Source of the DNA: Thermodesulfobacteriota bacterium
Lineage (GTDB): Bacteria; Desulfobacterota; Desulfobaccia; Desulfobaccales; 0-14-0-80-60-11
NCBI GenBank assembly: GCA_040757175.1
Contig: JBFLXM010000032.1
Span: 7,448 to 71,447, forward strand
Length of the DNA stretch: 64,000 nt
Reading direction: 5' to 3'
The position numbers and the translations under genes are program-made. The notes below the pieces were generated by a model. The model was given only the letters and a program-made list of their open reading frames with translations, was not told the DNA's origin and did not search any database. Shown piece by piece: positions 7,755 through 64,000 of this stretch (its first letter is position 1; each line of letters begins with the position of its first letter).

Positions 7755-7756
7755 TA

Positions 7757-7784
7757 CGGTTTTCCGTTTTCCGTTTTCCGTTGG
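7757..7784. repeat. Heptamer tandem array (TTTTCCG-type, about 3.5 units)
   Basis: cggttttccgttttccgttttccgtt lies directly after the rubredoxin stop codon. Confidence 0.9.
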
Positions 7785-7864
7785 AAAGGCGTTGGCTCAA
7801 TAGGCAGGGAGAATTAAGATAAACCTGTTTATCGTGTGGTTAAATAATATCAAGGCATGGGAAT

Positions 7865-8596
7865 ATGGCCTTCATGGCTCTGAACAACCAAGACAAAAGC
7901 CGGCAGAATAACGCCCTGAAAAAACCCTTTTGGCGGGAATATGGCGAAGCTCTGTTCATCGCCCTGGTGCTGGCCCTGGTCATCCGGGCCTTCGTGGTCC
8001 AGGCCTTCTCCATTCCCTCCGGCTCCATGATCCCCACCCTCCTGGTGGGGGATTACCTGTTGGTGAACAAATTCAGTTACGGCATCCGCAACCCCTTCTC
8101 CAACAAGGTCTTGGTCCCCACCTGGAAACCCCAGCGGGGGGACGTGGCGGTCTTCATCTTCCCCCAGGACCCTTCCAAAGACTATATCAAGAGGCTTATC
8201 GGGCTGCCGGGAGACCGAGTGCAGATCATCAACAAGAAAGTCTTGATCAACGGCCAACCTTATGAGGTTCCCCAGGCCCGTTTTGCCGATAAAGAACTCA
8301 TTCCCGCCAACCAATCCCCCCGGGACAACTTCGGGCCGGTGGTGGTGCCCAAAGACTCCTATTTCTTCATGGGGGACAACCGGGACCAGAGTTATGACAG
8401 CCGGTTCTGGGGCTTCGTGCCCATGGACGATCTCCGGGGCAAGGCTGTGGTTATTTACTTTTCCTGGGAGGGTTCGGACCACCAACCCCTCTACCTGGCC
8501 TTCCTGGGCGGCCTCAAGGGCTTGATCACCCACCAGGCCTGGGATGCCGGCTATTTCAAGGTGCGCTGGGGCCGCATCGGCAAGTTGATCCATTAA
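7865..8596 (+). CDS. lepB: Signal peptidase I
   Basis: IPSGSMIPTL (catalytic Ser box), KRLIGLPGD and GDNRDQSYDSRFWGFVP boxes. Confidence 0.92.
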   Translation: MAFMALNNQDKSRQNNALKKPFWREYGEALFIALVLALVIRAFVVQAFSIPSGSMIPTLLVGDYLLVNKFSYGIRNPFSNKVLVPTWKPQRGDVAVFIFPQDPSKDYIKRLIGLPGDRVQIINKKVLINGQPYEVPQARFADKELIPANQSPRDNFGPVVVPKDSYFFMGDNRDQSYDSRFWGFVPMDDLRGKAVVIYFSWEGSDHQPLYLAFLGGLKGLITHQAWDAGYFKVRWGRIGKLIH

Positions 8597-9155: not shown

Positions 9156-10187
9156 ATGCCATCGGCCCACCGTGATAAACCATTGTGGCCAGGTTTATCC
9201 CTCCCCGCCATGAAGTTCAGAAATACACTTATACATATGCCTTTTGTCTTTTCCAACCGAAAACGGCAAACCAAAAATCGAAATCACCTATGGACCTTGC
9301 CACTATTGATGTTTTTATTGGCGGCCGCCTGTGGCCCTGCCTCTGCCCCTATAATTGTCTTTTGTTCCCCGGATTCGCCCCGGATGCGCCAGGCCATCGC
9401 CGGGCTGGAAGCGTCTTTGGGGCAGGGCCGGCTGGAAGTGGTCTGCATCCCGGAGTTCGGCGGCCAGGGAGACGAGGAGTTGCGCCGCCTGCGGAGCCGC
9501 AACCCCCGGCTGCTGGTAGTCCTGGGCACCCCGGCCCTGATCCGGGTGGCCCCGGTGGAAAAACGGACGCCCGTGGTCTTCGCGTTGGTGGCCAATCCCT
9601 ATTTCACCGGCGCCGCGTATGAACCGGAGCATCCGGAGATTCACCAGGGAAATATCACCGGCGTCTTCTCCCCGCCGCCCCTGGACACGGCTTTGGAGCA
9701 GGGGGCCGCGCTCTTGGGCGCGGGTTCCTGGGGCCTGCTCTACGACCCCAATGACGGGGTGGCGGTGGAGCTCCAAAAGCGCTTCCGGCAAGAGGCCCCG
9801 GGCTATGGCCTGAAGCCCTTGACTGCCGCCAGCGCCGCGGCCGCCACGGATCGCCAGGGACTGGAGAAGCTGCTGGCCCAGGGGGCCAGGGTGATTTATC
9901 TCCCCCCCACTCCCGGCGCGGCCCGGTATGCCCCCCTGCTGCTGGAGTGGGGCAGGAAACAAAAGGTGATGGTGGTGAGCAGCCACCCGGAGTTTCACCA
10001 GGGCGCGATTCTCTGGGTGGCCCTGGATTACCGCCGCCTGGGGGAGGAGGCCGGGGCCCTGGCTCGGCGGGTCCTGAACGGGGAGGCCCCGGACAAAATT
10101 CCCATTGCGGAAAAGGCCCCCCTTAAGGTACAAGTGGACGAGCGGCTGCTCCGGAAATGGAGCGGGTATCCTGCAGCCCGAAAATAA
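9156..10187 (+). CDS. ABC transporter substrate-binding lipoprotein (ABC_sub_bind-like family)
   Basis: Lipobox-like LLAAAC. The central VVFALVANPY..QGNITGVFSPPP resembles the conserved NvTGv segment of that family. The true start is probably an internal Met. Confidence 0.55.
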   Translation: MPSAHRDKPLWPGLSLPAMKFRNTLIHMPFVFSNRKRQTKNRNHLWTLPLLMFLLAAACGPASAPIIVFCSPDSPRMRQAIAGLEASLGQGRLEVVCIPEFGGQGDEELRRLRSRNPRLLVVLGTPALIRVAPVEKRTPVVFALVANPYFTGAAYEPEHPEIHQGNITGVFSPPPLDTALEQGAALLGAGSWGLLYDPNDGVAVELQKRFRQEAPGYGLKPLTAASAAAATDRQGLEKLLAQGARVIYLPPTPGAARYAPLLLEWGRKQKVMVVSSHPEFHQGAILWVALDYRRLGEEAGALARRVLNGEAPDKIPIAEKAPLKVQVDERLLRKWSGYPAARK

Positions 10188-10243
10188 ATGATTTCTCACG
10201 CAAAGACGCCAAGGCGCAAAGACGCAAGAATTTTTCTTTCCTC

Positions 10244-10266
10244 GTTCCCAAGCTGCGCTTGGGAAC
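10244..10266. repeat. REP-type hairpin (GTTCCCAAGC..GCTTGGGAAC family)
   Basis: gttcccaagctgcgcttgggaac, followed by a related cccgaagcttggcttcgg hairpin. The same family recurs at 42661-42683 and 55347-55369. Confidence 0.75.
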
Positions 10267-10304
10267 GCACTTGGACCCGAAGCTTGGCTTCGGAACATAA
10301 CCGA

Positions 10305-10391
10305 ATGAGAACCCGGTATAAGATTAACGATGCAGGTCAAATATATTTCATCACTTGCACTATTGTTGAATGGATTCCAGTATACCCATAA
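10305..10391 (+). pseudogene. N-terminal remnant of an IS200/RAYT-like (Y1) transposase
   Basis: The 28-codon ORF MRTRYKINDAGQIYFITCTIVEWIPVYP* matches the conserved N-terminal strand of the YKF..g.YF.T...v.W..vF transposase family and then stops. It is preceded by REP hairpins and an 8-nt repeat (acgcaaag acgccaag gcgcaaag acgcaaga, about 10195-10230). Confidence 0.5.
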
Positions 10392-10406
10392 TCAAATTCA
10401 AGAATA

Positions 10407-10434
10407 GGAACTTTGAACCTGGAACCTGGAACTT
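10407..10434. repeat. Heptamer tandem array (GGAACCT/CTGGAAC type)
   Basis: ggaactttgaacctggaacctggaactt lies just upstream of the first M16 peptidase start. Confidence 0.85.
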
Positions 10435-10451
10435 CTCTCTGGAGGACTTGC

Positions 10452-11780
10452 ATGACCCTTGCTCCCAAGTTGGACCCCGCGGTCTGGCAGCCGGAAATCG
10501 AGATAATCCCCTACCGGCTGGATAACGGCCTGCAATTATTCGTGCTCCCCGACCACCGGGTGCCCATGGTCTCTTTGCAGCTCCACTACCACGTGGGCTC
10601 CCGGTTTGAGCTCCAGGGCATCACCGGCATCAGCCACCTCTTCGAGCACCTGATGTTCCGGGGGTCGGAGACCCTGGGCCCCGAGGAATTCTCCCGCATC
10701 CTCCAGGCCAAGGGCGGGGAGATCAACGCCTTCACCACCCGGGACCACACCTCCTACTTCGAAAACCTGCCCGCGGAGCACCTGGAACTGGGTCTGCAAT
10801 TGGAGGCCGACCGCCTGGCCAACCTGAAGCTGAACGATGAGAACTTCCAGACCGAACGCCAGGTGGTCATCAGCGAGCGGAAGCTGCGCTCCGTGGACAG
10901 TCCCTTCGGCCTGGTCCTGGAGCAGCTCTTTGCCGGGGCCTTCACCCAGCACCCCTACCAGTGGCCGGTGATCGGCTGGGACCAGGACCTCAAGCGCATG
11001 AGCCTGCGGGAATGCCTGTCCTATTACCAGACCTATTATCACCCCGGCAACCTGACGGTGGTCGTCGCCGGGGACGCGGAGCCGGACGCGGCCCGGGACC
11101 TGGTGGACCGATACCTGGGGAAGCTCCCCAGCCCGGGGCCCCCCCGCCCTCTCATCGTCCAGGAGCCCCCCCAGCGGGGGGAGCGCCGCGCGGTCCTCAA
11201 GAAGGTGTCCCAGGTGGAGGCCCTGTTCGCGGGGTTTCATATCGTGGGCATGGATCATCCGGACATCTATCCCCTCTCTCTTTTGGCCATCATCCTCTCC
11301 GGGGGCAAATCCTCCCGCTTCTACCAGGAGTTCGTGCGGCCGGGCCGGGCGGTGGAGATGGAGGCGGAGATCGCGCCGCCCCCCTGGACCAGCGAAGACC
11401 CGGACCTGATGGTCATGACCGCCATTGCCGCGCCCGGGCAACCTCTGCCCCAACTGGAAGAAGACCTGTGGGCCGCGCTGGCCCGTCTCCAGAAAGACGG
11501 CGCACAGCCGGGGGAACTGGCCCGGGCCCAGAAACTTCTCCGGGCCCAGGCCGCCCGGGGCTTGTCCCAGAATTTCTACCGGGGCCTGCTGGTGGGCCTC
11601 TTCCACCTGAAGACCGGGGACGCCGGCCGGGTCAACCAACTGCTTAAACTCTACGAGGCGGTCACCCTGGAAGACGTGCAGCGGGTGGCCCAACAGTACC
11701 TCCGGGAAGACAACCGCACCGTCGTCACCCTGAAACCGGTCTCTCCGGAAGAGAGCCAGGCTTTGGGGGAGATGGTTTGA
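10452..11780 (+). CDS. M16 (pitrilysin/insulinase) family zinc peptidase, catalytic-type subunit
   Basis: HxxEH zinc motif (ISHLFEHLMFRGS) and M16 architecture. ATG at 10452 after GGAGGA; the track's TTG start lies inside the heptamer array. Confidence 0.85.
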   Translation: MTLAPKLDPAVWQPEIEIIPYRLDNGLQLFVLPDHRVPMVSLQLHYHVGSRFELQGITGISHLFEHLMFRGSETLGPEEFSRILQAKGGEINAFTTRDHTSYFENLPAEHLELGLQLEADRLANLKLNDENFQTERQVVISERKLRSVDSPFGLVLEQLFAGAFTQHPYQWPVIGWDQDLKRMSLRECLSYYQTYYHPGNLTVVVAGDAEPDAARDLVDRYLGKLPSPGPPRPLIVQEPPQRGERRAVLKKVSQVEALFAGFHIVGMDHPDIYPLSLLAIILSGGKSSRFYQEFVRPGRAVEMEAEIAPPPWTSEDPDLMVMTAIAAPGQPLPQLEEDLWAALARLQKDGAQPGELARAQKLLRAQAARGLSQNFYRGLLVGLFHLKTGDAGRVNQLLKLYEAVTLEDVQRVAQQYLREDNRTVVTLKPVSPEESQALGEMV

Positions 11781-39949: not shown

Positions 39950-39965
39950 AGTCGCCTCTCCTGAA

Positions 39966-40048
39966 GTGGTCAGTGGCCAGTGGTCAGTAGTCAGTAAAAA
40001 ATAGGCTGCAATCTTTACTGACCACTGGCCACTGATCACTGCTCACTG
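39966..40048. repeat. Inverted pair of heptamer arrays (GGTCAGT-type arm / ACTGACC-type arm)
   Basis: gtggtcagtggccagtggtcagtagtcagta .. tactgaccactggccactgatcactgctcactg. It fills the glmU-glmS intergenic gap; the right arm ends 1 nt from the glmU stop. Confidence 0.88.
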
Positions 40049-41447: not shown

Positions 41448-41530
41448 CCTTTATTTTTATGCACTCATTGTGCCATATTATTAGCCGGAAACGCTCCATA
41501 GGGACTGGAACTCCGCTAACGCGCATATTA

Positions 41531-41878
41531 TTAAAGTTTGAATGAGAGCGGATACACCTCATATAAATATGCATGAGCAAGTGAGAAAGGATCAATAAAT
41601 GCGAGTTCACGCCTGTCGGTTTCGGCCTGTATGTAAGGTATTACAACAGCACCTCCATCAATAACAGAAATATTGTCTGGCAACGACTCGAAGCCAACCA
41701 ATAGCTTTTTGGCATGAATTATTCTGTTCAAAGCATCCCAAAGCTCGGAAACCACCTCTCCTTTTTTAGTCGGCTTCCATTTCCAGCGTTTCTGAGAGAG
41801 TATAAATTTTGGTCTATTTTTAACAGATTCTAGTATGCGACGTGCATTAAGGGCATATGCACTTATTACCTCAATCAT
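41531..41878 (-). CDS. Hypothetical protein in an AT-rich islet
   Basis: 115-aa ORF with no recognised family. Its composition contrasts strongly with the flanking genes. Confidence 0.4.
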   Translation of the reverse strand: MIEVISAYALNARRILESVKNRPKFILSQKRWKWKPTKKGEVVSELWDALNRIIHAKKLLVGFESLPDNISVIDGGAVVIPYIQAETDRRELAFIDPFSLAHAYLYEVYPLSFKL

Positions 41879-42001
41879 TCATGCAGAAGCTTCTTCTAAA
41901 AAACCAGAATTATTTTTTGGAAACTGCGTACTTGCAAGACTCCACAGGACCACTGCTTCTTCGGCCGCTCTACGTGCTGAATGCTTTGTAATTGCTTCCA
42001 T
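41879..42001 (-). CDS. Hypothetical 40-aa ORF abutting the 115-aa ORF
   Basis: My translation is MEAITKHSARRAAEEAVVLWSLASTQFPKNNSGFLEEASA*. GGAG lies 7 nt upstream. Its TGA is immediately followed by the ATG of the next ORF. Confidence 0.3.
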   Translation of the reverse strand: MEAITKHSARRAAEEAVVLWSLASTQFPKNNSGFLEEASA

Positions 42002-42038
42002 TCTGTACTCCTGCGCCCACTACATTAGTAAATCTTAA

Positions 42039-42683
42039 GTAGGGTGCGTCTCACGCACCATTATTTTTTCTCATTCACCAAAACCAATATCCTTTATTTC
42101 TTCCTCATTAATGCCGCCCCAATCGGACGGATATATTCCCTTACCTACGAATCGATGAAAAGTTGAATAAGGCCATTCTATCACTCGATTCACATAACCA
42201 TGTTTCACGGGATTCCAATGAATATAATCCAGGTGCCTTTGTAAATCCAGTTCATCCCGGATGCAATGCTCCCAGAACCTTCTTTGCCAAAATGGACCCT
42301 CACCGCGATTACCGCGAGAACTGCTAACTGGCACCCTCATCCCTTCAAGAGAACCGCAACGCTTGCTTACGATTCGTTTAATAACAGCCCACCGGGAACC
42401 ATAATTGTCGTCATTTTCCGGCAAAGTCCAGATGGTATGAAGATGATCCGGCAATAACACCCAGGCTTCGATGGTGAAGGGCAAAGATTGGCGGACCTCT
42501 TGAATCCCCTCCCGCATGGCTGCCCGGACCTGATCGTGTGTCAGTATGGGTTGGCGGCCAAAGGTGACCACGGTAAAGAAATAGGTGCCGCCTTTTAATT
42601 TGGTTCGCCGATATTCAGGCATATTTATTGGTGCGTAAGACGCACCCTACAAGGACCCACTTCCCAAGCGCAGCTTGGGAACC
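42039..42683. mobile_element. RAYT gene bracketed by inverted REP hairpins (REP/RAYT unit)
   Basis: Left GTAGGGTGCGTCTCACGCACC (42039-42059). Right GGTGCGTAAGACGCACCCTAC (42630-42652) in inverse orientation, plus a GTTCCCAAGC-type hairpin (42661-42683). Confidence 0.8.
42071..42622 (-). CDS. REP-associated tyrosine transposase (RAYT, IS200/Y1 superfamily)
   Basis: HUH motif (LLPDHLHTIW), catalytic Tyr region (LDYIHWNPVKHGY), and an N-terminal GGTYFFTVVTFGRQP strand. Confidence 0.85.
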   Translation of the reverse strand: MPEYRRTKLKGGTYFFTVVTFGRQPILTHDQVRAAMREGIQEVRQSLPFTIEAWVLLPDHLHTIWTLPENDDNYGSRWAVIKRIVSKRCGSLEGMRVPVSSSRGNRGEGPFWQRRFWEHCIRDELDLQRHLDYIHWNPVKHGYVNRVIEWPYSTFHRFVGKGIYPSDWGGINEEEIKDIGFGE

Positions 42684-42693
42684 AGGGGAAATA

Positions 42694-42927
42694 TCATCCC
42701 CATTCAGAGCGAATATTTTGCTGATATTCCAGGCTGTTTCCCCTTTTCCAGAGACCTCTGGTACTTTCCAACAATCGTTGATAGGTCTTTTGTCGTTGCT
42801 CTTCCTTCAAAAAATCAATCCCTTGACGGATAGCCGCAGCCACTGAAATCTTGTGAACTCTGCAATAGGCGTCAAGCCACTCTTTATCCGCTTCCGGGAT
42901 GGTGAAAGTAATCCGTTTAGCAGACAT
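42694..42927 (-). CDS. Ribbon-helix-helix (CopG-like) antitoxin, apparently orphan
   Basis: MSAKRITFTIPEADKEWLDAYCRVHKISVAAAIRQGI is a typical RHH N-terminus. No toxin ORF follows; REP hairpins and the RAYT gene come next. Confidence 0.65.
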   Translation of the reverse strand: MSAKRITFTIPEADKEWLDAYCRVHKISVAAAIRQGIDFLKEEQRQKTYQRLLESTRGLWKRGNSLEYQQNIRSEWG

Positions 42928-43055
42928 ACCCCAAAATCCTTTTTCTCACACTGATACAGAAAACATATAAGAAAAAAGGCAATTTGTAAAAATGAAAAGG
43001 CAAGCCCGGATTTCCAGGCTTGCCTTTTTGTTTTATCGGTTAAACGTCGGTTTGG

Positions 43056-54905: not shown

Positions 54906-54913
54906 GAAAGGAT

Positions 54914-55051
54914 CGTTTTTCGTATTCCGTTTTTCGTTTTGCGTATTAAAACAATAACATATCTTGAGCGAAATTTGTTGGATCTTCTTCGAAATATCTC
55001 AAGCGGGCAAAAGTGATTTTTTACGAAAAACGCAAAACGAAAAACGCAAAA
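54914..55051. repeat. Inverted pair of heptamer arrays (CGTTTTT-type arm / ACGAAAA-type arm) around a roughly 75-nt centre
   Basis: cgtttttcgtattccgtttttcgttttgcgtatt .. acgaaaaacgcaaaacgaaaaacgcaaaacc, between the dnaX start and the tRNA-Ser 3' end. Confidence 0.88.
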
Positions 55052-55061
55052 CCGCCTTTAG

Positions 55062-55154
55062 TGGCGGAGAGAGAGGGATTCGAACCCTCGGAGCACTTAT
55101 TAGGCACTCACACGATTTCCAATCGTGCCCCTTCAGCCTCTCGGGCATCTCTCC
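55062..55154 (-). tRNA. tRNA-Ser (anticodon GGA), class II with a long variable arm, CCA encoded
   Basis: The reverse complement reads GGAGAGATGCCCGAGAGGCTGAAGGGGCACGATTGGAAATCGTGTGAGTGCCTAATAAGTGCTCCGAGGGTTCGAATCCCTCTCTCTCCGCCA. Anticodon arm CACGA-TTGGAAA-TCGTG; T-arm GAGGG-TTCGAAT-CCCTC. Confidence 0.9.
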
Positions 55155-55210
55155 GCAAGGATGAACTTGGATTATCACACGGCGGCACAGGCGTCTCGCC
55201 TGCGCAGTAT

Positions 55211-55543
55211 GGTGGGCCATGCCCACCCTACAACTGCTCTGAAAATGTCCTTCGTAGGGCGCGTCTCACGCGCCATAATGGTGCGTAGGACGCACCCTAC
55301 AACAATTTTCATCCTTCTGGGTGTTCCCTTGGAACATGAATTGCTCGTTCCCAAGCTTGGCTTGGGAACGGTGATTATCCGTCCAAGCTTTGCTTGGACA
55401 CCTTATATTATATACCCGGCTTTAATCCGCTTAACCAGAAAATTGACAATAAAGGGTTGGAGCGCACCAAAATGGCGGGCCAGGCCCGCCCCACACCGCT
55501 GTCCACAAATAACTAAGCAGCGGGCGAGGACGCCCGCCCTACG
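55211..55543. repeat. Cluster of REP-type hairpins from at least four families (BIME-like)
   Basis: The cluster contains seven hairpins: ggtgggccatgcccaccctac (55211-), gtagggcgcgtctcacgcgcc (55254-), ggtgcgtaggacgcaccctac (55280-), gttcccaagcttggcttgggaac (55347-), gtccaagctttgcttggac (55381-), ggcgggccaggcccgcc (55474-) and gcgggcgaggacgcccgccctac (55520-). Confidence 0.8.
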
Positions 55544-55560: not shown

Positions 55561-55737
55561 CTATTTCTCCGGTTTGGGCACCAGGACCTCGTAATCCTTC
55601 CTCTTCTCCGGCGGCAGGTCGTTATATTCCTCTTCGGTGATAATACAATCCAGGGGGAGGGAGCCCATGTCCTCCCGGTAGGTGTTCTTCTCCCCCAGGT
55701 AGATTTCGCAATTTTTATTGATATAGGTGAGTCCCAT
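55561..55737 (-). CDS. Hypothetical small protein (58 aa; below the track cutoff)
   Basis: My translation is MGLTYINKNCEIYLGEKNTYREDMGSLPLDCIITEEEYNDLPPEKRKDYEVLVPKPEK*. GGAGG lies 6 nt upstream of the ATG. No family recognised. Confidence 0.45.
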   Translation of the reverse strand: MGLTYINKNCEIYLGEKNTYREDMGSLPLDCIITEEEYNDLPPEKRKDYEVLVPKPEK

Positions 55738-55764: not shown

Positions 55765-55797
55765 TACTGATCACTGACCACTGACCACTGATCACTG
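55765..55797. repeat. Heptamer tandem array (ACTGACC type)
   Basis: tactgatcactgaccactgaccactgatcactg, immediately left of the tRNA-fragment/att candidate. Confidence 0.88.
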
Positions 55798-55803
55798 TAT
55801 TTA

Positions 55804-55835
55804 TGGCGGAGGGGGTGGGATTCGAACCCACGCCA
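55804..55835 (-). other. tRNA 3'-end fragment (T-arm, acceptor 3' strand and CCA): candidate att site of the integrase island
   Basis: The reverse complement reads GGCGTGGGTTCGAATCCCACCCCCTCCGCCA. No matching 5' acceptor strand (GGAGGGG) or anticodon arm exists upstream, and the integrase stop lies 7 nt away. Confidence 0.6.
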
Positions 55836-55841
55836 TAAGCA

Positions 55842-57065
55842 TCATTTATTCTTAAAATCCAATAGCTTGGCTTTCTTATTTTTTGTCTTGGGGCTACTTT
55901 GGGGATAGTCGGGGCGATCCCAGTAAGATTTCAACTTCTCGGTGCAAACTTCTAGATAGCGCGCAGTGGTGCGTGGGTCTTTGTGTCCCATCATTTCCTG
56001 GATGATTTTCAGGTCCACCCCGGCATTAATGGCCTGGGAACCTCCCGAATGCTTGGTTCCTTGATAAAGGCTGATCTTAATCCCTGCTCTGGCGGTAGCA
56101 CGTCTCCAATAGTCTTGAACTGTATTTTCCTTGAGGGGTTCCCCCCGATAGGTAAAGACATAACCGCTCAAGGCCCGGGTGGGAATAGCTTCCATGGCTG
56201 CTCTTACTTCCGGATGTATGGGCAGGGTCCGAATATCCCGGGTCTTAGTATGTTCCCGGAATACCCCTTCGTCCATGGCTGCATCAATTCTAACCAGATT
56301 GCGCTCGAAATTTATCCGGTCCCATTTAAGGGCTCTGGCCTCGTTGGGCCGGCAAGCTTGTCTCATCAAGAAGAGGAAGAGAGCCCGGTAAACCGGATCA
56401 TGTACTTCGGCCAGGATGAGCGCCTGGTCTTCCTCATCGATCCACTTGATTGGGGGAATGACAAATTTTATTACCGGGAACTCAGGAAAGCGTTGAATGT
56501 CCCCAGCGCGCAGAGCATCCCGGAGGATTTTATGAAGCAAGCCAAAGATATTTTTTTTTGTTTTGGCGCTCAAACTCCGGGGTAGCTGGCGGCGAAATTT
56601 TTCAAGCTGCCCGTCTTCAATTTCCCTGATATTCATGCCGCCAAAAAATGGCAGCAAGTGATTGCGGGCATAAGACTCCGCCCCTTTTAAATACGATCTG
56701 GAAATGCCCTCAGGCAAATCAATTTCCTCGGCCCGCCAGGCAAACCAGGTCCGTACATAATTTTCAAATTTCAGCTTATTCAGGTCCCGGCGCACATAAT
56801 TCTTGGGGTCGAAACGGAACTTCCCTTTGCTTTTCTGATCCCGGTCGATCTCGTGACGGATGTGGGTCAACAAGCGGTCAGCCTGTTCCCATGAACTTAA
56901 GGAGTAGCCATCTTCGTCGGAATAGAGTTTGTGCTGCTTTTTCCAATAGAAATCAATATAGTATCGGGTGGGGATGGTTTTGCAGGCGGGACAGGTTAAA
57001 GGCTCTCCCTGGAAACGTCCCTTACACTGCGGACATTTCTCCTTGGTGCGAATGATCCCGAGCAT
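55842..57065 (-). CDS. Tyrosine recombinase / phage-type integrase with an N-terminal Cys4 zinc ribbon
   Basis: C-terminal catalytic region (..GTKHSGGSQAINAGVDLKIIQEMMGHKDPRTTARYLEV, the HxxR..Y pattern). N-terminal CPQCKG..CPACKT. The start could be 57065 or 57101. Confidence 0.9.
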   Translation of the reverse strand: MLGIIRTKEKCPQCKGRFQGEPLTCPACKTIPTRYYIDFYWKKQHKLYSDEDGYSLSSWEQADRLLTHIRHEIDRDQKSKGKFRFDPKNYVRRDLNKLKFENYVRTWFAWRAEEIDLPEGISRSYLKGAESYARNHLLPFFGGMNIREIEDGQLEKFRRQLPRSLSAKTKKNIFGLLHKILRDALRAGDIQRFPEFPVIKFVIPPIKWIDEEDQALILAEVHDPVYRALFLFLMRQACRPNEARALKWDRINFERNLVRIDAAMDEGVFREHTKTRDIRTLPIHPEVRAAMEAIPTRALSGYVFTYRGEPLKENTVQDYWRRATARAGIKISLYQGTKHSGGSQAINAGVDLKIIQEMMGHKDPRTTARYLEVCTEKLKSYWDRPDYPQSSPKTKNKKAKLLDFKNK

Positions 57066-57306
57066 GGAAAGATTATAGGGAAGAGGGTGTTCCAAGTGCA
57101 ACCTTTTTCGTCAAAAGTCCTAACTTAGGTTGAGAGTTGAGGGTCTATTTGGGGGGTCTTTTCCTTGAGTAAGGGGTTACCTCCCACCCCCCCTGCGGTG
57201 CAGGTTTTTGCCCAGCCGATAGGTGTAACTCTCTTACAACGCAGACTAATCGCGATTAATCAAATACGGAAAAGAGTTATGGAAAAGAGGGATAAATGAG
57301 GTGGTG

Positions 57307-57738
57307 TTAACGAGGAGCGCTTAAGAGTTGCGGAGAAAGATTCAGGTCGATTATACCCAGTTTATGGAGGATTTTTTCTCGAGCCAGGAGATATATCGGC
57401 GCTGCCGATAGATAAGCGCCTGAGGCTCCTTCCTCGGCCAGGTGTAATCTGACCGGGGTCCACCACCAGGCGGCCAAGGCCAGAAGCAGCTCTGTCCCAA
57501 GCCGGGCGACTGGATCCATCAGAAGGCTTAAGCCCAGGAATATCCCAAGCACCGCGGCCCCCATAGAGCCGGGAGGACCACTTACCACTATAAGCATCAC
57601 ACCCAGGCCTACGACGACCGGCATAGACCAACCGTCGAGCTTATTAAGCAGGGCCAGCCGCGCTCTGATATATGGCAAGTATGGGAATGGTAAAAACATA
57701 TCGAACTTTCTGTTAACAGAGCGAAGATCAGATGTCAA
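57307..57738 (-). CDS. Hypothetical membrane protein
   Basis: 143 aa with three hydrophobic stretches (VVVGLGVMLIVV, AAVLGIFLGLSLL, LLLALAAWWW). No family recognised. Confidence 0.35.
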   Translation of the reverse strand: MTSDLRSVNRKFDMFLPFPYLPYIRARLALLNKLDGWSMPVVVGLGVMLIVVSGPPGSMGAAVLGIFLGLSLLMDPVARLGTELLLALAAWWWTPVRLHLAEEGASGAYLSAAPIYLLAREKILHKLGIIDLNLSPQLLSAPR

Positions 57739-58659
57739 GACATTTTATCATTTATTATAATTTATTGAGAAAAGGTCGCATAAGGCTAAAAAAAAAGAGG
57801 ATCGATTTTACAAGCCTATCGGCTATTGTTATTTATAGAAGTCAGGAGGCAGCTTCCATAGCAACTCCAGGCTTTCTCCGGTTTATTTGTTGTAAATGCC
57901 AGAAAATGCCAGGAGTACCCTCTCCGGAAGCTTCATTTTTCTCTCCAGCTTTTTTACTTAATTTTATCCAATGCTTACATGATCACAATTTAGCTGATTT
58001 GCCTATCCTCGCTTTTTCATGCTTTTACCTTATTGCTTACGGACAAGGGGGTGCTATATCCGTTGTAGGTGACAAATTTTCATTTTCATCAGTTTTTGCT
58101 CACGCTTACCCCTTAATAAACGGATATGAGGGTGCAAATCCCGGCAACGGATATGGGGTTTCTCGATCTACTGATGATCCCAGCCTATGCCTGAAAAAGG
58201 AACCGGCTCAAAGGCTCCGGAGACCAGCAACCCCAATACCTACAATTCCACCGGGTCAACACCAGCCCGTTTATGCCTATGCGGTATCCACCCGCACGGC
58301 CGAGGACGCCTTGAGGATACAGCTGGGGTGGAGTTTGATTAGATTGTTCGATGGATTTGGCAGGCTGATCTGCTGAAATGATTGGGGGCACGGGAAAATT
58401 CTAAATATGTACAGAGTCTTATTTCTATCTATGATAAGCATAACATAACCAAAAAGCCTGATGATGAAGTGCGCAGATAGAGCAGCTATTCAACTATGAG
58501 CGCAGACGAAAACTGGTGTCATCGAAACTATCCCCTCCGGATGGTCATTTTGTGAAAACGGGGAGATTGTTCATCCTCTCCTCTCCTTATTTTTGTCCAA
58601 CGTACGCATAAACCTCGGCGAGCCTGCCTTAGTGTTCTATGCGCTGCTTCGATGTTGCC

Positions 58660-59121
58660 TTACCTTCTTATCGCCTGCAAAGCGTACTTGGCCAGTTGTT
58701 TGTGCAGGTCGGACTCTTTCGGATCATCAACAAGAGCCTGTAATGCAGGGATGGCTTCGCTTGCCTTATGGCCGATGAGTTCGAGTGTCATTATCGCGTT
58801 CGCACCCATTTCTCCGGCAGGACCACTGCCTTGAGCCGTTGATCTGATGACCTTGACGAGAGATGGAACTGCGGGTGCACCGATCCTGACGAGTGCTTCA
58901 TGCGCACCCTGCGAGATGTTAGACCCGAGTTCGCCAACAGTCTGGGAGATCATCTCGTTGGAGGCATGCTGAATTCGGTAGTTGACGTTCTGGGCAGTGA
59001 TTGAGTCGAAGGCGTCTTCAATCTGCGCGTCTACTTTCTTCCAGGCTATCGATTTCTTCCCCGTACGTGACGAGGCAGAGGTTTCACTTTGTGCAAACAA
59101 ACGTTTCAGCCATGCGAACAT
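58660..59121 (-). CDS. HEAT-repeat protein (153 aa)
   Basis: C-terminal half with HEAT/PBS-lyase-like repeats (AVPSLVKVIRS.., AIPALQALVDDPKESDLHKQLAKYALQAI). The N-terminal MFAWLKRLFAQS tag is shared with the upstream gene. Confidence 0.55.
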   Translation of the reverse strand: MFAWLKRLFAQSETSASSRTGKKSIAWKKVDAQIEDAFDSITAQNVNYRIQHASNEMISQTVGELGSNISQGAHEALVRIGAPAVPSLVKVIRSTAQGSGPAGEMGANAIMTLELIGHKASEAIPALQALVDDPKESDLHKQLAKYALQAIRR

Positions 59122-59145
59122 TTTAGATTCCCCCTTTTGAAAGGC

Positions 59146-59421
59146 TTAGCCTTTCATTTTCAAGAACTGACTCACGCAAGGTTTATGAACATCGACAATG
59201 GTCTCTTTGCCAAAGACAGTTGTCTTGACCGCCTTAGTGTCACTTGCGCGACAGTAGTATTCTCCGCAAAGGCGGCATTTCCTTGCGCCATGGCTGTCAC
59301 TGCCACAGACCTTACATGGTGCGGCATCTAATGCGGCGAATTCGGAGAAGTTGCCCCTGCGTGACCCTGGTTCACTTGAGTCCCGGGAGTCCGCAAAAAG
59401 AAATTTGATCCACCGAAGCAT
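59146..59421 (-). CDS. Small zinc-ribbon protein (91 aa from the ATG at 59421)
   Basis: CKVCGSDSHGARKCRLCGEYYC. An AAGGAGAG RBS lies 7 nt upstream of the ATG at 59421. N-terminal MLRWIKFLFADS tag. Confidence 0.5.
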   Translation of the reverse strand: MLRWIKFLFADSRDSSEPGSRRGNFSEFAALDAAPCKVCGSDSHGARKCRLCGEYYCRASDTKAVKTTVFGKETIVDVHKPCVSQFLKMKG

Positions 59422-59538
59422 TTTAGTCTCTCCTTTCCTTCTTCGAACGTCAGGGGTGAGCAGATGGTGAGCCGCACAGAGAGTCATCGCTTGACTACAC
59501 AGGCTTTAAGGGCGCGTCGTCTACATGGCTTTTTTCGG

Positions 59539-59679
59539 CTACTTCTTCCATGCAATTTTCCGTATAACACCATTGTAACCCCATACGATATCAAGATCAT
59601 CTTCATGTTCCAGTTCCCGAAGAACTCTCGTATATTCTGACTGGATTTCGCTGGCACACCCTGGCAGCACTTCTTTCAA
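59539..59679 (-). CDS. Possible 46-aa ORF (TTG start) between the DUF4062-like and Zn-ribbon genes
   Basis: My translation is (M)KEVLPGCASEIQSEYTRVLRELEHEDDLDIVWGYNGVIRKIAWKK*. The composition is protein-like, but the RBS is weak and the start is non-ATG. Confidence 0.2.
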   Translation of the reverse strand: MKEVLPGCASEIQSEYTRVLRELEHEDDLDIVWGYNGVIRKIAWKK

Positions 59680-59726
59680 GTAATCTTTACAATGTCAGAA
59701 TATGTGATTTATCCAATACTTCCTCT

Positions 59727-60587
59727 TCATTGCTGGGAGCGATTCTGCCATGCCACAAAAATGCGGCCCTCAATTGGCTTAGATTTCTCCGATAGGTCGC
59801 CGGGCTCGGGGATGAAAAAACGGTTTTTGTCAGCTATCTCTAATACAAGGCGGCGAGCGCGAAATTGCGCTTCAAGCTTTGCACGAGTGTATTTCCTCTC
59901 CCAAAAGTACATGACATCGCCTTCCTCGAATCTTAGATGAGGATTGACAATCCAATTTTGAAACATGCCGACGGCGTTTGCAATATCTCTAACCTCATTT
60001 ATCCCTGGAACCTTTCCTGCGACGTTCGGATCGGTCGGCATTTTTTCCGCCTCCGAGACGATGACCGGTTCTGGTGGGGAGAAATACCCGACCTCCCTTT
60101 CAAAGAGTGAGCATAATAGTTCTAGTTGCTTCAGGAGCGATAATTCCAGCTGGGCCATATTTCTGAATACATTGTAAAATTGCCCATCGCCTTCAATCTG
60201 TTGTCTCATCTTCTGAATATCGAGGATGGCCTTATCGATCAAATGAATCGCTACGCGGGCATGTTTAAAGTACACAAGTATATGGCGAGGATTATGGCCT
60301 TCCCTGAAATTATTATAGGCGAAATCGAACTCCTGCTTAGTGAAACGACCAACCTTTTTATGGAAAAGCACAATCATCGCGTCGCATTCAAGTATCTCGG
60401 CGTTGAATCTAGCTTGCACACCGTCCGGTCCAAAAATGAGCAGAAGCTCCTCCCATCGAACTACCTCCAGAAAGAAGCCCTTATCGATGACTGTCGAGTT
60501 CTTTCTCTGAATTACGCGTTCGACCAGATCACGTTCCCCCGCAAGTTCGTTGGACGATGCCAGAAATAATCGCTTCTTAAGAATCAT
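59727..60587 (-). CDS. DUF4062-like (TIR/flavodoxin-like fold) N-terminal domain protein with an unknown C-terminal half
   Basis: RLFLASSNELAGERDLVERVI and ECDAMIVLFHKKVGRFTKQEFDFA parallel the remembered DUF4062 consensus (FISSTF.DL..ER ... CDIFIGIIG.RYG..TE.E). A GAGGAGAA RBS follows a 21-nt gap after the GT2 gene. Confidence 0.5.
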   Translation of the reverse strand: MILKKRLFLASSNELAGERDLVERVIQRKNSTVIDKGFFLEVVRWEELLLIFGPDGVQARFNAEILECDAMIVLFHKKVGRFTKQEFDFAYNNFREGHNPRHILVYFKHARVAIHLIDKAILDIQKMRQQIEGDGQFYNVFRNMAQLELSLLKQLELLCSLFEREVGYFSPPEPVIVSEAEKMPTDPNVAGKVPGINEVRDIANAVGMFQNWIVNPHLRFEEGDVMYFWERKYTRAKLEAQFRARRLVLEIADKNRFFIPEPGDLSEKSKPIEGRIFVAWQNRSQQ

Positions 60588-60608
60588 CGGCTTTTCTCCT
60601 CTTCATAG

Positions 60609-61481
60609 CTACGCCTGGTCAGAGAAACCTGCCGCAATGGCCGGAATCTGCGGCAAGTTGTTTTCTTCGAGGAAGAAGCGAAGCAGACTCCGTCTTCCAG
60701 ACCATGCAGTTGGGAATTTCTGTCTGAAGTAGCGCACATTTCGATCTAAAGTGTCCAGTCGCTCATCCCAATTTGTTGGGTGATCCAGATGGTATGCAGC
60801 CCCATGCTTGCGATGGGGGTAGACGAAGCTCAGTCCGTTAAGATGCAGGCGGTAGGCAAGTTCCAGGTCTTCTTCGCCCCAGCCGAGGAAGCTCTCATCC
60901 CATCCACCGACATCCTCAACTTCATGGCGTTCGATACTTGTGCAGTGGCTTGCACAAAGAACCCAGATATTCGTTTTTTTCCCTCGTAGTCTTCTGGGAA
61001 GCGGCCGTGTGTCGATGCCGCAGTGTTTTGTTACAAACGGACCAAGTCTTGGAAGGTCCTGGGAAATGACCAGCGGTGCGAGGAGGCCAATCGACGCTGT
61101 GTGATCTTGCTCTGGGATGCTGTAGACAGGATATTTGACGACCACCTTACGATGTCTCGCGTGTAGATGGATCGCCGCTCGGATGATGCGAGGCTCAGGG
61201 ACTATATCACCGTCGAGATAAAGGGTCACTTGTCCATGAGCGACTTGATGCCCAAGGTTTCGTGCCATGGCTCGACGACCTGGTTCGCCCTCGCCCAGAC
61301 GGATGTAACGTGCGCCGAATGTTTCGACAATAGGGGCGATGTCTTCGGCGGAGGCGTCATCAACGCAAATGATTTCCAGTCCAGCGCATTCGGACGCGCG
61401 GAGAGCGCGCAAAATCCACGGTAAGACTCGCTGGTTGTTGTGGCATGGAATGATGACTGAGATTGAATGCATGCACATCAC
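60609..61481 (-). CDS. Family 2 glycosyltransferase
   Basis: ISVIIPCHNN..LEIICVDDAS..YLDGD, the GT-A DxD architecture. Confidence 0.85.
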   Translation of the reverse strand: MMCMHSISVIIPCHNNQRVLPWILRALRASECAGLEIICVDDASAEDIAPIVETFGARYIRLGEGEPGRRAMARNLGHQVAHGQVTLYLDGDIVPEPRIIRAAIHLHARHRKVVVKYPVYSIPEQDHTASIGLLAPLVISQDLPRLGPFVTKHCGIDTRPLPRRLRGKKTNIWVLCASHCTSIERHEVEDVGGWDESFLGWGEEDLELAYRLHLNGLSFVYPHRKHGAAYHLDHPTNWDERLDTLDRNVRYFRQKFPTAWSGRRSLLRFFLEENNLPQIPAIAAGFSDQA

Positions 61482-61808
61482 CTGTGCGGGTTTGTCAGGG
61501 CAGCTAACAATCCGAGTCTATCGATGACGGCATATTAACACAAGTTTCTTTGAAAGAACAATTTTTCCCTGAATTCCAGGAGATAGCATAATCCCACAAT
61601 CCATCAGTCAGTCGATTTTGGCAATGCCTTTTGGGGGCTTAAATTAGGGCCGTCAGTAGATGATAACTTGCCAATTGTTGGAATTATCGACGGGGAGACA
61701 AGAAATCCTGGTATGATCACCTTATAGAAACCTCACACTCCACTTTCGCAATTTCAATCGTCAGAAACTCTTAAAAATATAAGTCTTTTTTTTCATCATA
61801 AAATATGA

Positions 61809-61902
61809 TTTCACCAAACGGTGAAAATATCATAATTAGTGAAAATGAGATTGACAGGAATAGATTTTCACTATAGATTTAATTTTCAGCAAATGGTGAA
61901 AA
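61809..61902. promoter_or_regulatory. Promoter region with five GTGAAAA/TTTTCAC operator-like heptads upstream of the AbiE-like pair
   Basis: TTTCACC-aaac-GGTGAAA inverted repeat (61809-61826); GTGAAAA (61839-45); TTGACA (61851-56), then 17 nt, then TAGATT, with TTTTCAC (61865-71) in the spacer; GTGAAAA (61896-902) just before the ATG. Confidence 0.45.
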
Positions 61903-61913
61903 GGTTGTTTTAA

Positions 61914-62999
61914 ATGAAATTATCTGAACGGGAACTATTCGAACTGGTAGAAGAGGCTCTTTCTTCCTGCCTGGCAAAGGTCCCTTTCCTCAAGATACGA
62001 GATATCGAACAGGAGTCCGCTCAAGAAGCTGCCAGGCCGGATTTTTTAATCACCCTGGAGGTCCCGGCAGGCACCCAAACTTTTGTAGTTGAAGTTAAAA
62101 ACGCCGGTCAGCCACGAGTGGCTAGGGATGCGGTAAATCAACTCCTGCGATTTTCCCAAGCATTTCCCCAAGCTTTTCCTGTCTTCATTGCTCCTTACAT
62201 TTCTCCAAAAGCAGCGGAAATCTGTGAACAGGCAGGAGTCGGATACCTAGACTTTTCCGGCAACTGCCGCCTTTGCTTTCAGGAGGTCTATATTGAAAAA
62301 ACGGGCAACCCCAATATTTTTTCCGAGAAGAGAGACCTGCGTTCGCTCTATTCTCCAAAAGCGGAAAACGTTCTGCGTGTACTCCTGACAACTCCCCTAA
62401 AGGCTTGGAAAATTCAGGAACTGGCCGATGAGGCCGGGGTGAGTGTTGGCCAGGTTGCCAAGGTAAAAAACCTCCTGCTCAACCGTGAGTGCCTCAGCGA
62501 AGCCGATGGTATGGTCCTGTCCAAACCGGAAGAGCTTCTGTCTGAGTGGGCCAAGAATTATAATTTCCGCAAAAACCGGGTGAGAGACTTTTATTCTCTG
62601 AAAAGTGTCTCGGAAATAGAATTCGCTTTGGCCAACTTATGCAAATCAGAGAAGTTGACCTATGCCCTGACGTCCTTCTCCGGAGCAGCCAGGCTGGCTC
62701 CTGCGGTGCGTTATCAGCGCGTTTTTGCCTATTTGGAAGAGACGGAAAAGGATGTGGCCGGCTTACTTAACTTGAAAGAAGTGCCCAGCGGCGCCAATAT
62801 CAGCCTGTTGACCCCCTATGATGAAGGGATTTTTTACGGCAGTAAAGATATTAACGGTATCCGTATCGCTTCCCCCATTCAGATTTATCTTGATCTGAAA
62901 ACTTACCGCGGCCGGGGTGAGGAAGCAGCCGACATGCTTCTTGAGCAGGTGATCAGGAAAAGATGGCAACAAGAACAGATTACAATGAAATTGCTGTAA
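61914..62999 (+). CDS. AbiEi-like antitoxin/regulator with an N-terminal PD-(D/E)xK-like domain
   Basis: N-terminus: ..ARPDFLITLEV..FVVEVKNAG..NQL, a D..EVK nuclease-fold pattern. Middle: wHTH (WKIQELADEAGVSVGQVAKVKNLL). C-terminus: ..GIRIASPIQIYLDLKTYRGRGEEAADMLLEQV, resembling AbiEi C-terminal domains. It overlaps the next gene by 37 nt. Confidence 0.5.
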   Translation: MKLSERELFELVEEALSSCLAKVPFLKIRDIEQESAQEAARPDFLITLEVPAGTQTFVVEVKNAGQPRVARDAVNQLLRFSQAFPQAFPVFIAPYISPKAAEICEQAGVGYLDFSGNCRLCFQEVYIEKTGNPNIFSEKRDLRSLYSPKAENVLRVLLTTPLKAWKIQELADEAGVSVGQVAKVKNLLLNRECLSEADGMVLSKPEELLSEWAKNYNFRKNRVRDFYSLKSVSEIEFALANLCKSEKLTYALTSFSGAARLAPAVRYQRVFAYLEETEKDVAGLLNLKEVPSGANISLLTPYDEGIFYGSKDINGIRIASPIQIYLDLKTYRGRGEEAADMLLEQVIRKRWQQEQITMKLL

Positions 63000-63787
63000 A
63001 AGCAGCCCGGTCGGTGTTACTTGAACTTGCCCACCTCTTGGGGGAATACCGTGAAGATATGGTACTGGTGGGAGGGTGGGTTCCGGAATTTATCTTCGCT
63101 AACAAGGTCAAGCCACACTGCGGCAGCATAGACGTGGATCTCGCCCTGGATCACCGCAAGCTCCAGGAGCAAGGATACAAGTCTATTCAGAAACTCCTCC
63201 TGAGCAGGGGATATGAGCAAGGAAAGCAACCATACATATTTCACAGACGGGTTTTCGTAGAAGACCAGGAGATTATTGTTCAGGTAGATTTGTTAGCCGG
63301 AGAATATGAAGGAACCGGGAAAAGTCACCGCACTCAAAGGATGCAAGATGTCCTGGCCCGCAAAGCCAGAGGATGCGATTTGGCTTTTGATATGGTTATG
63401 GAAGTGCCGATTGAGGGAGAACTTCCAGGGGGCGGCAAGGACTCTGTAACTATCCGGGTGGCTACGATAGTGCCATTTCTAATTATGAAAGGCATGGCTT
63501 TAGAGGACCGCTTGAAAGAAAAGGATTCCTGGGACATTTATTACAGCATAACAAACTATCCCGGTGGACTCGATGGTCTGGTTGAAGTATTCAGACCTTA
63601 TCTGAAACATGGATTGGTCCGGGAGGGATTGGAAAAAATTGCCAAGAAATTCGCAACGGAAAAAGATATAGGTCCGAAATTTGTCGCTGATTTTGAAGAG
63701 ATCACCGACCCGGAAGAACGTGAAATCTTGCAGCGTGACGCTTATGAGCGGGTGAACTACCTTCTGACAAAATTGGGTATCGTATGA
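62963..63787 (+). CDS. AbiEii-like nucleotidyltransferase (type IV TA toxin family)
   Basis: ..MVLVGGWVPEFIF..HCGSIDVDLALDH.. resembles the GG..x..S.DhD nucleotidyltransferase motif of the AbiEii/DUF1814-like family. Its position downstream of an AbiEi-like gene supports the call. Confidence 0.55.
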   Translation: MATRTDYNEIAVKAARSVLLELAHLLGEYREDMVLVGGWVPEFIFANKVKPHCGSIDVDLALDHRKLQEQGYKSIQKLLLSRGYEQGKQPYIFHRRVFVEDQEIIVQVDLLAGEYEGTGKSHRTQRMQDVLARKARGCDLAFDMVMEVPIEGELPGGGKDSVTIRVATIVPFLIMKGMALEDRLKEKDSWDIYYSITNYPGGLDGLVEVFRPYLKHGLVREGLEKIAKKFATEKDIGPKFVADFEEITDPEEREILQRDAYERVNYLLTKLGIV

Positions 63788-64000
63788 CGCAAAACTGAAA
63801 GAGGTGTTCCGAGGCTCCCTCAGAGTAAAGTATTCACCTGCCATATTTCTCCACGAGGGGGGCTTATCGAAGGAGTAGCATAAGTTGCAGGTATGGAGAT
63901 GGAACGATTTTAGATTCCTGACAATCCCAGCATCATAGTAGCATCATAGGGGATGATTTTTGCCTTGACGGTCCTGGACTGCCTCAAGCGATCACTTAAG

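Follow-up and report, generated by a model that had tools for sequence, protein, structure and literature searches.

A tyrosine integrase gene beside the 3′ end of a tRNA that lacks its 5′ half raises the question of whether a mobile element entered the chromosome at this point, and if so, where the element begins and which tRNA gene was its target. Such a junction is found near the right end of the 64,000-nucleotide (nt) stretch of Thermodesulfobacteriota DNA analysed here (contig JBFLXM010000032.1, positions 7,448 to 71,447; below, the window). The first-pass annotation, made from the letters and a list of open reading frames (ORFs), had taken the fragment for the scar of an integration event and had placed the element to its right, with the intact tRNA beyond position 64000. 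We found that the right end of the window is very probably the start of a genomic island that was integrated site-specifically in the T-loop region of tRNA-Ser(CGA) by the island's own integrase.

The tRNA fragment and the boundary of the island

The window has a single copy of the 31-mer GGCGTGGGTTCGAATCCCACCCCCTCCGCCA, on the minus strand at 55804-55834, and the chance expectation of this 31-mer is zero even with three mismatches permitted. No tRNA gene was called at this position by ARAGORN and Rfam. The sole tRNA gene that they found in the window is an intact tRNA-Ser(GGA) at 55062-55154 on the minus strand, immediately upstream of dnaX, which is a neighbour of the fragment and not the target, and over 50-64 kb Rfam with a permissive threshold returned only this gene and chance matches. 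A tRNA 3′ end without a 5′ half beside the integrase stop, as first annotated, is thus what the window contains. The perfect tRNA end had been given as 31 nt long. This held for 29 of the 31 nt (CGTGGG...GCCA, 55804-55832), which agree with the intact gene in relatives, and not for the other two, which are unmatched there; 28 nt are common to all displaced copies. The 29 nt on the minus strand comprise the T-stem, T-loop, 3′ acceptor strand, discriminator G and CCA and form the attR core, the displaced 3′ fragment of tRNA-Ser(CGA), which is unique in the window and marks the left boundary of the island. The intact tRNA-Ser(CGA) genes of L217, L130 and L215 (loci in relatives are given L numbers) end in exactly these 29 nt, and the identical 28-mer is found 3′ of the integrase in L002, L003, L015, L135, L138, L139 and L167.

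The composition of the DNA differs between the two sides of the fragment. The G+C content (GC) was 58.8% for positions 1-55803 versus 48.1% for 55835-64000, and in 1-kb bins it was 0.589 ± 0.047 to the left versus 0.482 ± 0.012 to the right (Mann-Whitney p 2e-5). The tetranucleotide distance to the rest of the window was 0.39-0.45 in the island versus 0.13-0.25 elsewhere. The AT-richer DNA that had been noticed to the right of the integrase was thereby confirmed, and the left boundary of the island was fixed at 55832/55833. The visible part covers 55833-64000, at least 8,168 nt, and leaves the window at its right end. A second copy of the fragment was found neither in the window nor in the 10-kb flanks of L001, L002, L003, L014 and L015 when up to eight mismatches were allowed, and the islands at those loci are longer than 10 kb.

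Loci in relatives were obtained by searching genomes, one for each species, with the integrase family, together with metagenome contigs, and L217 was reached through homologues of DnaX and TadA and then their contigs. L217 is a 23-kb metagenome contig from the Joint Genome Institute, and its DnaX is 84% identical to that of the window. It carries tadA (10001-10453), an intact tRNA-Ser(CGA) (10550-10643), a CAGTGRT heptamer array, a 58-amino-acid (aa) ORF (10712-10888), tRNA-Ser(GGA) (11009-11101) and dnaX (from 11208), in this order. Collinearity with the window in blastn starts at L217 10615, which corresponds to window 55832, the first base of CGTGGG in the T-stem, and runs on through dnaX, ybaB and recR. 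The DNA upstream of this point (L217 1-10614), with tadA, purH and other genes upstream of the tRNA, had no blastn counterpart anywhere in the window. L217 is an unoccupied site, and the synteny breakpoint is at the T-stem of tRNA-Ser(CGA), as integration predicts. A search of related genomes for an empty site had been proposed with the first-pass annotation; L217 supplies that site, and its breakpoint, exactly at the T-stem, bears out the reading of the fragment as an integration scar.

The isoacceptor was assigned in a second comparison. In IMG/VR, exact matches to the 28-mer GTGGGTTCGAATCCCACCCCCTCCGCCA lay at 50 loci, and in 40 of these the 28-mer was the 3′ end of a tRNA-Ser, namely tRNA-Ser(UGA) in 35 loci, tRNA-Ser(CGA) in 4 and tRNA-Ser(AGA) in 1. 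The other 10 were orphan fragments without a tRNA, two of them on the same contig as an intact copy. The 3′ end alone was rejected as a guide to the isoacceptor, since the 28-mer fits Ser(UGA), Ser(CGA) and Ser(AGA) genes and is ambiguous; CGA was assigned because of the synteny with relatives. The fragment is 86% identical to the neighbouring tRNA-Ser(GGA), with 4 of 29 aligned positions differing. By sequence comparison, the target gene is tRNA-Ser(CGA) and not a copy of the adjoining Ser(GGA). The earlier guess of a serine isoacceptor is in this way narrowed to CGA, with a match of 29/29 in L217 and the synteny in agreement.

Both ends of such islands could be seen in relatives. On a 724-kb contig (contig_23510), tadA of L215 is followed by an intact tRNA-Ser(CGA) (L215 10627-10720, contig 584591-584498), and L015 holds a truncated integrase and a fragment (L015 10928-10953, contig 541880-541855), followed by tRNA-Ser(GGA) and dnaX. 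The two repeat copies have the same orientation, are separated by 42,643 nt and have a 31-nt identity block (ACGTGGG...GCCAT) in common. In L020, tRNA-Asp (524-600), the integrase (10001-11143) and an exact 24-nt fragment (11251-11274) span 10.7 kb from repeat to repeat, and in L047, tRNA-Leu(CAG) (6727-6813), the integrase (10001-11220) and the fragment (11249-11272) span 4.5 kb. L045 (8.6 kb from repeat to repeat) has the mirror layout, in which the integrase adjoins the intact tRNA-Ser(CGA) and the fragment lies at the far end. Most of the ~30 metagenome and genome loci that reach past the integrase stop have a co-oriented tRNA 3′ fragment, beginning at the T-stem, within ~10-120 nt of the stop, and members of the family show this integrase-fragment junction with many different tRNAs. 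A fragment beside the integrase and an intact tRNA at the far end is the demonstrated architecture of this integrase family. The geometry first proposed for the window, in which the island extends rightwards from the fragment to an intact tRNA at its far end, is the layout shown in L215/L015, L020 and L047, and the end of the island in this genome is a prediction from it.

The same site is occupied in other relatives. The layout is repeated in L002 (integrase 82% identical), L003 (71%) and L015 (45%, truncated integrase), where the order is integrase, same-strand 28-nt fragment, 22-650 nt of DNA, tRNA-Ser(GGA) and dnaX, and the metagenome contigs L135, L138, L139 and L167 have the same order of integrase, fragment, tRNA-Ser(GGA) and dnaX. 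Identity to the window is 75-88% in the housekeeping flank of the relatives. Upstream of the integrase, the genomes show no homology to one another, and the island in the window had no homology to the corresponding region of L002, L003, L015, L130 or L217. L001, from the metagenome-assembled genome (MAG) SURF_52, is 98.7% identical over window positions 55858-58485 only and diverges completely beyond 58485. L131 has retained the candidate integrase promoter and the first 26 codons (MAGTIRTLEKCP...), joined by a deletion to the heptamer array and the 58-aa ORF. In L130, an intact tRNA-Ser(CGA) precedes ~1.2 kb of foreign DNA that includes a methyltransferase gene, after which comes CCGCCAAAATACAGT where the window has CCGCCATAAATACAGT; CCGCCAAAATACAGT is probably the worn end of an old fragment. 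As judged from these sequences, the tRNA-Ser(CGA) locus is a hot spot that was gained, emptied and eroded among close relatives. L130 was also considered as an empty site and was rejected, with the ~1.2 kb of methyltransferase gene and other DNA separating its intact tRNA from the apparent degenerate fragment end.

In L001, positions 1-8502 take the place of window 58486-64000 and are GC-rich DNA (59.6%, whole contig) encoding a LuxR-type response regulator; this contig also encodes a 2381-aa ORF without a Pfam match. The switch point is marked by a short ORF, MSRKHYTPEQIIGKVL, which looks like a remnant of an IS3-family transposase. The L001 contig stops within the 3′ end of the integrase gene, probably by an assembly break at the repeated tRNA sequence.

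The probable course of events starts from the arrangement in the relatives, where the target tRNA-Ser(CGA) sits between tadA and the 58-aa ORF, tRNA-Ser(GGA) and dnaX. The attachment site of the island would have held the 3′-terminal ~29-31 nt of the tRNA as a copy, so that integration would have restored a complete tRNA where the far junction lies (attL, beyond 64000), and the original 3′ end of the host gene would have been displaced to the near junction (attR, 55804-55832). The recombinase is most probably the island's own lambda-type tyrosine integrase, encoded at the island edge, reading towards attR and having two DNA-binding specificities. Its catalytic and core-binding domains would act at the T-arm, a GTGGG/CCCAC stem around the 7-nt loop TTCGAAT, and the identity block spans the T-stem to just past the CCA. 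The Cys4 arm-binding domain would bind tandem arm repeats on either side of the core. The rest of the island is accessory cargo that varies from one genome to another, here an AbiE-like pair and defence-like or unknown genes. For this island we infer the far junction, the crossover in the T-loop, the role of the zinc-ribbon domain and any present-day activity.

The integrase and its predicted zinc-ribbon domain

The integrase gene was placed at 55842-57065 on the minus strand, giving 407 aa from an ATG at 57065, or 419 aa from a TTG at 57101. It matched the Pfam families Phage_integrase (E-value 3e-24) and Phage_int_SAM_3. The stop codon lies 7 nt from the 31-mer and 7-9 nt from the fragment core, and both the length of 407-419 aa (55842-57101) and the 7-nt spacing stand as first annotated. 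A candidate promoter, TTGCAC-18 nt-TATAAT, was read from the sequence at 57072-57101 on the minus strand, and it ends 6 nt before the ATG, a placement that suggests a leaderless mRNA. The promoter block is conserved, with 78% identity in the decayed locus L131 (8845-9044), and is also present in L001 and L002. The 407-aa form is favoured on these alignments because the promoter block is conserved and because most homologues start at the Met encoded at 57065.

In an AlphaFold model (predicted local distance difference test, pLDDT, 90), the integrase has an arm-binding, a core-binding and a catalytic domain, in this order, and Foldseek matched the model to full-length lambda Int (1z1b), Tn1549 Int and XerA. 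The residues R239, K274, H361 and Y370 are invariant in 89 homologues. The family comprises ~110 protein clusters. No close relative was found among the INPHARED phages and plasmid reference collections, where the best match had 27% identity and none spanned residues 1-32.

Tandem repeats of 9-11 nt were found on both arms, 40-100 nt from the core, in L020 (ACTGTCCCT), L047 (AACCGTGAACA) and L045 (TTGGTGACAC). The P-arm copies, as read, lie within the 3′ end of the integrase reading frame in L020 and L047 and downstream of the matched region in L045; in L215, a repeat (AGCGTCAGTGG / ACTGTCAGTGG) was seen on the P′ arm only. Repeats on both arms of complete islands are, if correctly read, the layout of a heterobivalent, lambda-type system. 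By analogy with L020, L047 and L045, and with low confidence, CTATCCCCAAAG / TAGCCCCAAGA at 55888-55911 on the minus strand were taken as candidate P-arm repeats in the 3′ end of the integrase ORF of the window. This imperfect tandem changes in parallel between loci of the window clade.

The N-terminal Cys4 ribbon described in the first-pass annotation is present at C11, C14, C25 and C28 (407-aa numbering; 56982-57035 on the minus strand) and is conserved. Of the 89 aligned integrases, 74 reach the N-terminus, and each Cys is kept in 70-74 of these, with His for Cys28 in four. The motif is part of an arm-binding-like domain formed by residues 1-78 (56832-57065, minus strand; secondary structure from AlphaFold, pLDDT 86-95), modelled as strand 3-6, two zinc knuckles at 9-30, strands 36-41 and 43-47, and helix 59-78. 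A zinc ribbon is thus predicted between strand 1 and strands 2-3 of the classic arm-binding fold, with the helix after them. No Pfam model reached the threshold on this domain, matches in a sequence search of the PDB started only near residue 102, and Foldseek with the domain alone found nothing in the PDB. The best structural match was a viral 'Min27-like integrase DNA-binding domain' protein (E-value 8e-3, template-modelling score 0.52). A phmmer search with the 100-residue domain against 1.84 billion representatives gave 172 proteins at E ≤ 1e-3, mostly the N-termini of ~400-aa proteins.

Zinc is never mentioned in a survey of the arm-binding domains of tyrosine recombinases (PMC8138268), and literature searches turned up no relevant report of a tyrosine integrase with a zinc ribbon. 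Motifs of the type CxxC...CxxC/H also stand at the start of two distant integrases, P0100 and P0101, and a Cys ribbon at the N-terminus is thus probably wider than the integrase family of the window. From the model, the Cys4 ribbon looks like an embellishment of an ordinary arm-binding domain and not like a new kind of enzyme. Tentatively, and with a confidence that stays a little under even, we would class the integrase in a small, undescribed, tRNA-targeting lineage of Thermodesulfobacteriota and Nitrospirota that has a Cys4 arm domain, Lys for the second catalytic Arg in half of its members, a P arm at the 3′ end of the ORF (L020 and L047) and a core ~10-120 nt past the stop.

Other targets were seen elsewhere in the family. 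In a sub-branch with 40-77% identity (L136, L143, L144, L145, L151, L152, L153 and L155), the fragment after the integrase ends ...TGGGTTCGATTCCCATGCACTTCCGCCA, which looks like the 3′ end of tRNA-Sec (selC), with a GGAAG-type acceptor and a G discriminator. In other branches, the fragments come from other Ser tRNAs or form a tmRNA- or Ala-like end, and there are also Asn-adjacent sites. The integrase family appears to switch its target frequently.

Weighing the alternatives

Several observations weigh against the proposed integration or qualify it. The intact tRNA-Ser(CGA) of this genome and the far junction fall outside the window (>64000), and the arm repeats of this island were identified tentatively, from the weak candidate motif at 55888-55911. 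Neither an excisionase nor phage or transfer/conjugation genes were found in the visible 8.2 kb. The catalytic set, as read from the alignment of the family, appears non-canonical, with Gln (Q335) for the first His and Lys (K338) for the second Arg (codons in window ~56050-56063, minus strand); throughout the family, Gln or Glu replaces the His of the His-x-x-Arg box, and the second Arg position is Lys in 45 and Arg in 44 of the 89 sequences. The nucleotide identity to L002 is 79% in the integrase region versus 87% in the dnaX region, so that the divergence of the integrase approximately tracks that of the host, and such parallel divergence would also fit long residence over recent transfer. 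An island that is real but fixed, decaying and vertically inherited, that no longer excises and whose cargo turned over by deletion, insertion sequence activity and homologous recombination is a distinct possibility, although the balance is tilted against it. The site is occupied in several related MAGs, with integrase divergence about in step with that of dnaX; decayed states are frequent, in that the integrase of L015 is truncated, most of the integrase and the fragment are gone from L131, and L130 retains only ~1.2 kb between the intact tRNA and the apparent degenerate fragment; and L001 combines an integrase module of 98.7% identity with other DNA beyond 58485, beside the apparent transposase remnant. 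The Lys at the second catalytic Arg position could be a further sign of decay, but its alternation with Arg in an otherwise conserved family argues that Lys is tolerated. In contrast to a decayed element, the integrase in the window is full length with the family-invariant residues intact, the attR core matches the intact tRNA at 29/29 positions, and the site is polymorphic, since it is empty in the equally close relative L217.

The island could also be more than one element. The right side of the window might be a tandem or composite array of at least two elements at the same tRNA, which we consider unlikely. tRNA sites accumulate tandem islands (125 tandems in Islander, PMC4383910). The locus was repeatedly gained and decayed in relatives, and L001 and the window share only 2.6 kb beside the integrase; however, neither a second fragment copy (≤8 mismatches) nor a second integrase was found within 55.8-64 kb. 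Integrases that target tRNAs are typical of temperate phages, and the same 28-mer marks prophage ends in IMG/VR, where the pairs L082/L100 and L096/L123 have an intact tRNA and a fragment on one contig. An integrated prophage or phage satellite in place of a non-viral island is nevertheless quite improbable here. No phage structural, packaging, replication or lysis genes were found in the visible 8.2 kb (Pfam, NCBIfam and PADLOC; PHROGs not used), the integrases of the IMG/VR contigs are only ~22% identical to that of the window, the closest INPHARED match leaves residues 1-32 uncovered, and the visible island cargo of relatives consists of transporters, regulators and similar genes. We give hardly any credence to a pseudo-tRNA that arose by duplication or decay of a tandem tRNA-Ser gene, with the integrase adjacent by chance and no integration. 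The serine tRNA genes are in tandem at this locus and the fragment resembles the 3′ end of tRNA-Ser(GGA), but the match at 29/29 positions is to Ser(CGA), and Ser(GGA) differs at four of them. Compared with the empty site, synteny breaks precisely at the T-stem, the integrase-fragment junction recurs with many tRNAs in the family, and matching intact copies are present at the far end in L215/L015, L020 and L047. Site-specific integration of an island at tRNA-Ser(CGA) is thus the reading that we retain.

Cargo, host flank and comparison with known systems

Beyond the integrase, the gene content switches to hypothetical proteins and an AbiE-like pair, as first annotated, and this cargo is not shared with relatives. 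The first gene of the pair (61914-62999, plus strand) encodes a 361-aa AbiEi_2-like antitoxin or regulator (PF09952, E-value 2.6e-19, 70.4 bits versus a cut-off of 21). The second (62963-63787, plus strand), which overlaps the first by 37 nt, encodes a 274-aa AbiEii-like nucleotidyltransferase with a weak match (PF08843, 19.3 bits, cut-off 22.5; PADLOC AbiEii, E-value 2.4e-4). The AbiE-like module of the first-pass annotation is thus clear for AbiEi_2 and weak for AbiEii. A 286-aa protein (59727-60587, minus strand) resembles the candidate defence protein PDC-S60 over residues 5-163 (PADLOC, E-value 5e-10) and had no Pfam or NCBIfam match. The cargo also includes a 290-aa family-2 glycosyltransferase (60609-61481, minus strand; Pfam Glycos_transf_2, E-value 1.5e-16; NCBIfam matches all below their cut-offs), and a 153-aa protein (58660-59121, minus strand) has weak HEAT-repeat similarity (Pfam HEAT_2, 19.8 bits, below the cut-off). 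Several other ORFs in the 6.9 kb past the integrase had no matches.

On the other side of the fragment, the host flank between the target tRNA and tRNA-Ser(GGA) contains the 58-aa ORF (MGLTYINKNCEIYLGEKNTY...; 55561-55737, minus strand), which is also found in L217, L130, L131, L002, L135, L138, L139 and L167. It has 84-91% nucleotide identity in most relatives examined, the empty site included, and no Pfam match. Directly after the CCA, in host DNA outside the island (B′), lies an array of 4.6 copies of the heptamer CAGTGRT (55766-55797, minus strand; period 7 in Tandem Repeats Finder). This array was considered as the P′ arm of the integrase, either as an attP-like junction or as a tandem remnant, and was rejected: in the empty L217 this array is likewise found after the intact tRNA, and similar host arrays are present elsewhere. 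Arrays of four to five tandem heptamers occur in intergenic host DNA of the window at 55766-55797, 39964-40048, 54913-54944 and 55023-55052, and in relatives at L217 10650-10682 and 11105-11135 and at L130 7905-7935 and 9240-9260. The units are CAGTGRT and TCGTTTT/ACGAAAA, with AAAACTG/CAGTTTT in relatives, often as inverted pairs that could form long hairpins. Examples are placed on both sides of tRNA-Ser(GGA), after tRNA-Ser(CGA) and between glmS and glmU; the unit varies by locus and genome, and the array format is kept. They are possibly terminators, processing signals or mobile repeats.

In L215 (10768-10790), the P′-arm repeat AGCGTCAGTGG ACTGTCAGTGG of the 42.6-kb island has the 8-mer GTCAGTGG in common with the host array at 55766-55797, and in L159, L163 and L171 the core lies between related CCGTCAGT repeats. 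The shared 8-mer could be a coincidence, mimicry or a trace of old arm remnants. A 183-aa ORF at 42071-42622 on the minus strand has a match to Y1_Tnp (21.3 bits, below the Pfam cut-off of 23; IS200-like) and looks like a tyrosine transposase of the type associated with repetitive extragenic palindromes (REP). It lies in an AT-rich patch at 41500-43000 (GC ~44-46%) between glmU and atpC, and GC-rich palindromes at 55209-55497 (GTAGGGTGGGCATGGCCCACCAT and similar) could be REP-type repeats belonging to it.

The analysis sets the island boundary to the base and marks tRNA-Ser(CGA), which lies between tadA and dnaX, as a hot spot that recurs in this lineage. The integrases that target the T-loop gain a family from uncultured lineages, sulfate-reducer-like and Nitrospirota, whose branches would have moved among tRNA-Ser, tRNA-Sec-like, Asp, Leu, Pro, Val and tmRNA targets and kept one attP layout. 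The zinc-ribbon variant of the arm domain is undescribed in current domain libraries, and its description may be useful for island-finding software and for integrase bioprospecting. Should the ribbon contribute to recognition of the T-arm or of the arm sites, a heterobivalent integrase would be built here in a new way. The general understanding of such elements is unchanged by the finding.

Islands integrated in tRNA and tmRNA genes are catalogued by Islander (PMC4383910), and the T-loop is a class of tRNA target for tyrosine integrases (Williams 2002 via PMC4383910; bioRxiv 10.1101/2020.11.02.365908). The island described here resembles the Islander type in its integrase at the edge, its 3′ fragment in direct orientation, the regenerated tRNA at the other end in relatives, its foreign composition and its variable cargo. 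It does not differ in kind; here the integrase adjoins the displaced fragment and reads towards the core. The phage mv4 of Lactobacillus delbrueckii also integrates at a tRNA-Ser 3′ end by a tyrosine integrase (bioRxiv 10.1101/2023.11.06.565760); unlike this phage, which has a host from an unrelated phylum, the visible part of the island showed no phage genes. The cargo pair shares with AbiE type IV toxin-antitoxin systems the overlapping genes and the order of an AbiEi-like gene followed by a nucleotidyltransferase-like gene, with AbiEi_2 above the Pfam cut-off. It departs from AbiE in that the AbiEii match was below the Pfam cut-off and weak in PADLOC, and in that the AbiEi-like protein is long (361 aa), with its N-terminal half unassigned. 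The integrase resembles lambda Int (1z1b) and Tn1549 Int (6en2) in its three predicted domains, with ~360 aligned columns between the model and full-length lambda Int, and it shares with lambda-type integrases the conserved R, K, H and Y as well as the tandem repeats that each arm carries in the family's complete islands. In contrast to lambda-type integrases, the enzyme of the window has a Cys4 ribbon in its arm-binding domain, no sequence match in Pfam or the PDB for residues 1-100, Gln for the first His, and Lys or Arg at the second Arg position in its family. It is well supported that this is an ordinary tRNA-integrated island, with a mild novelty in the zinc-ribbon arm-binding domain and the Lys/Arg variation in the catalytic set of its integrase.

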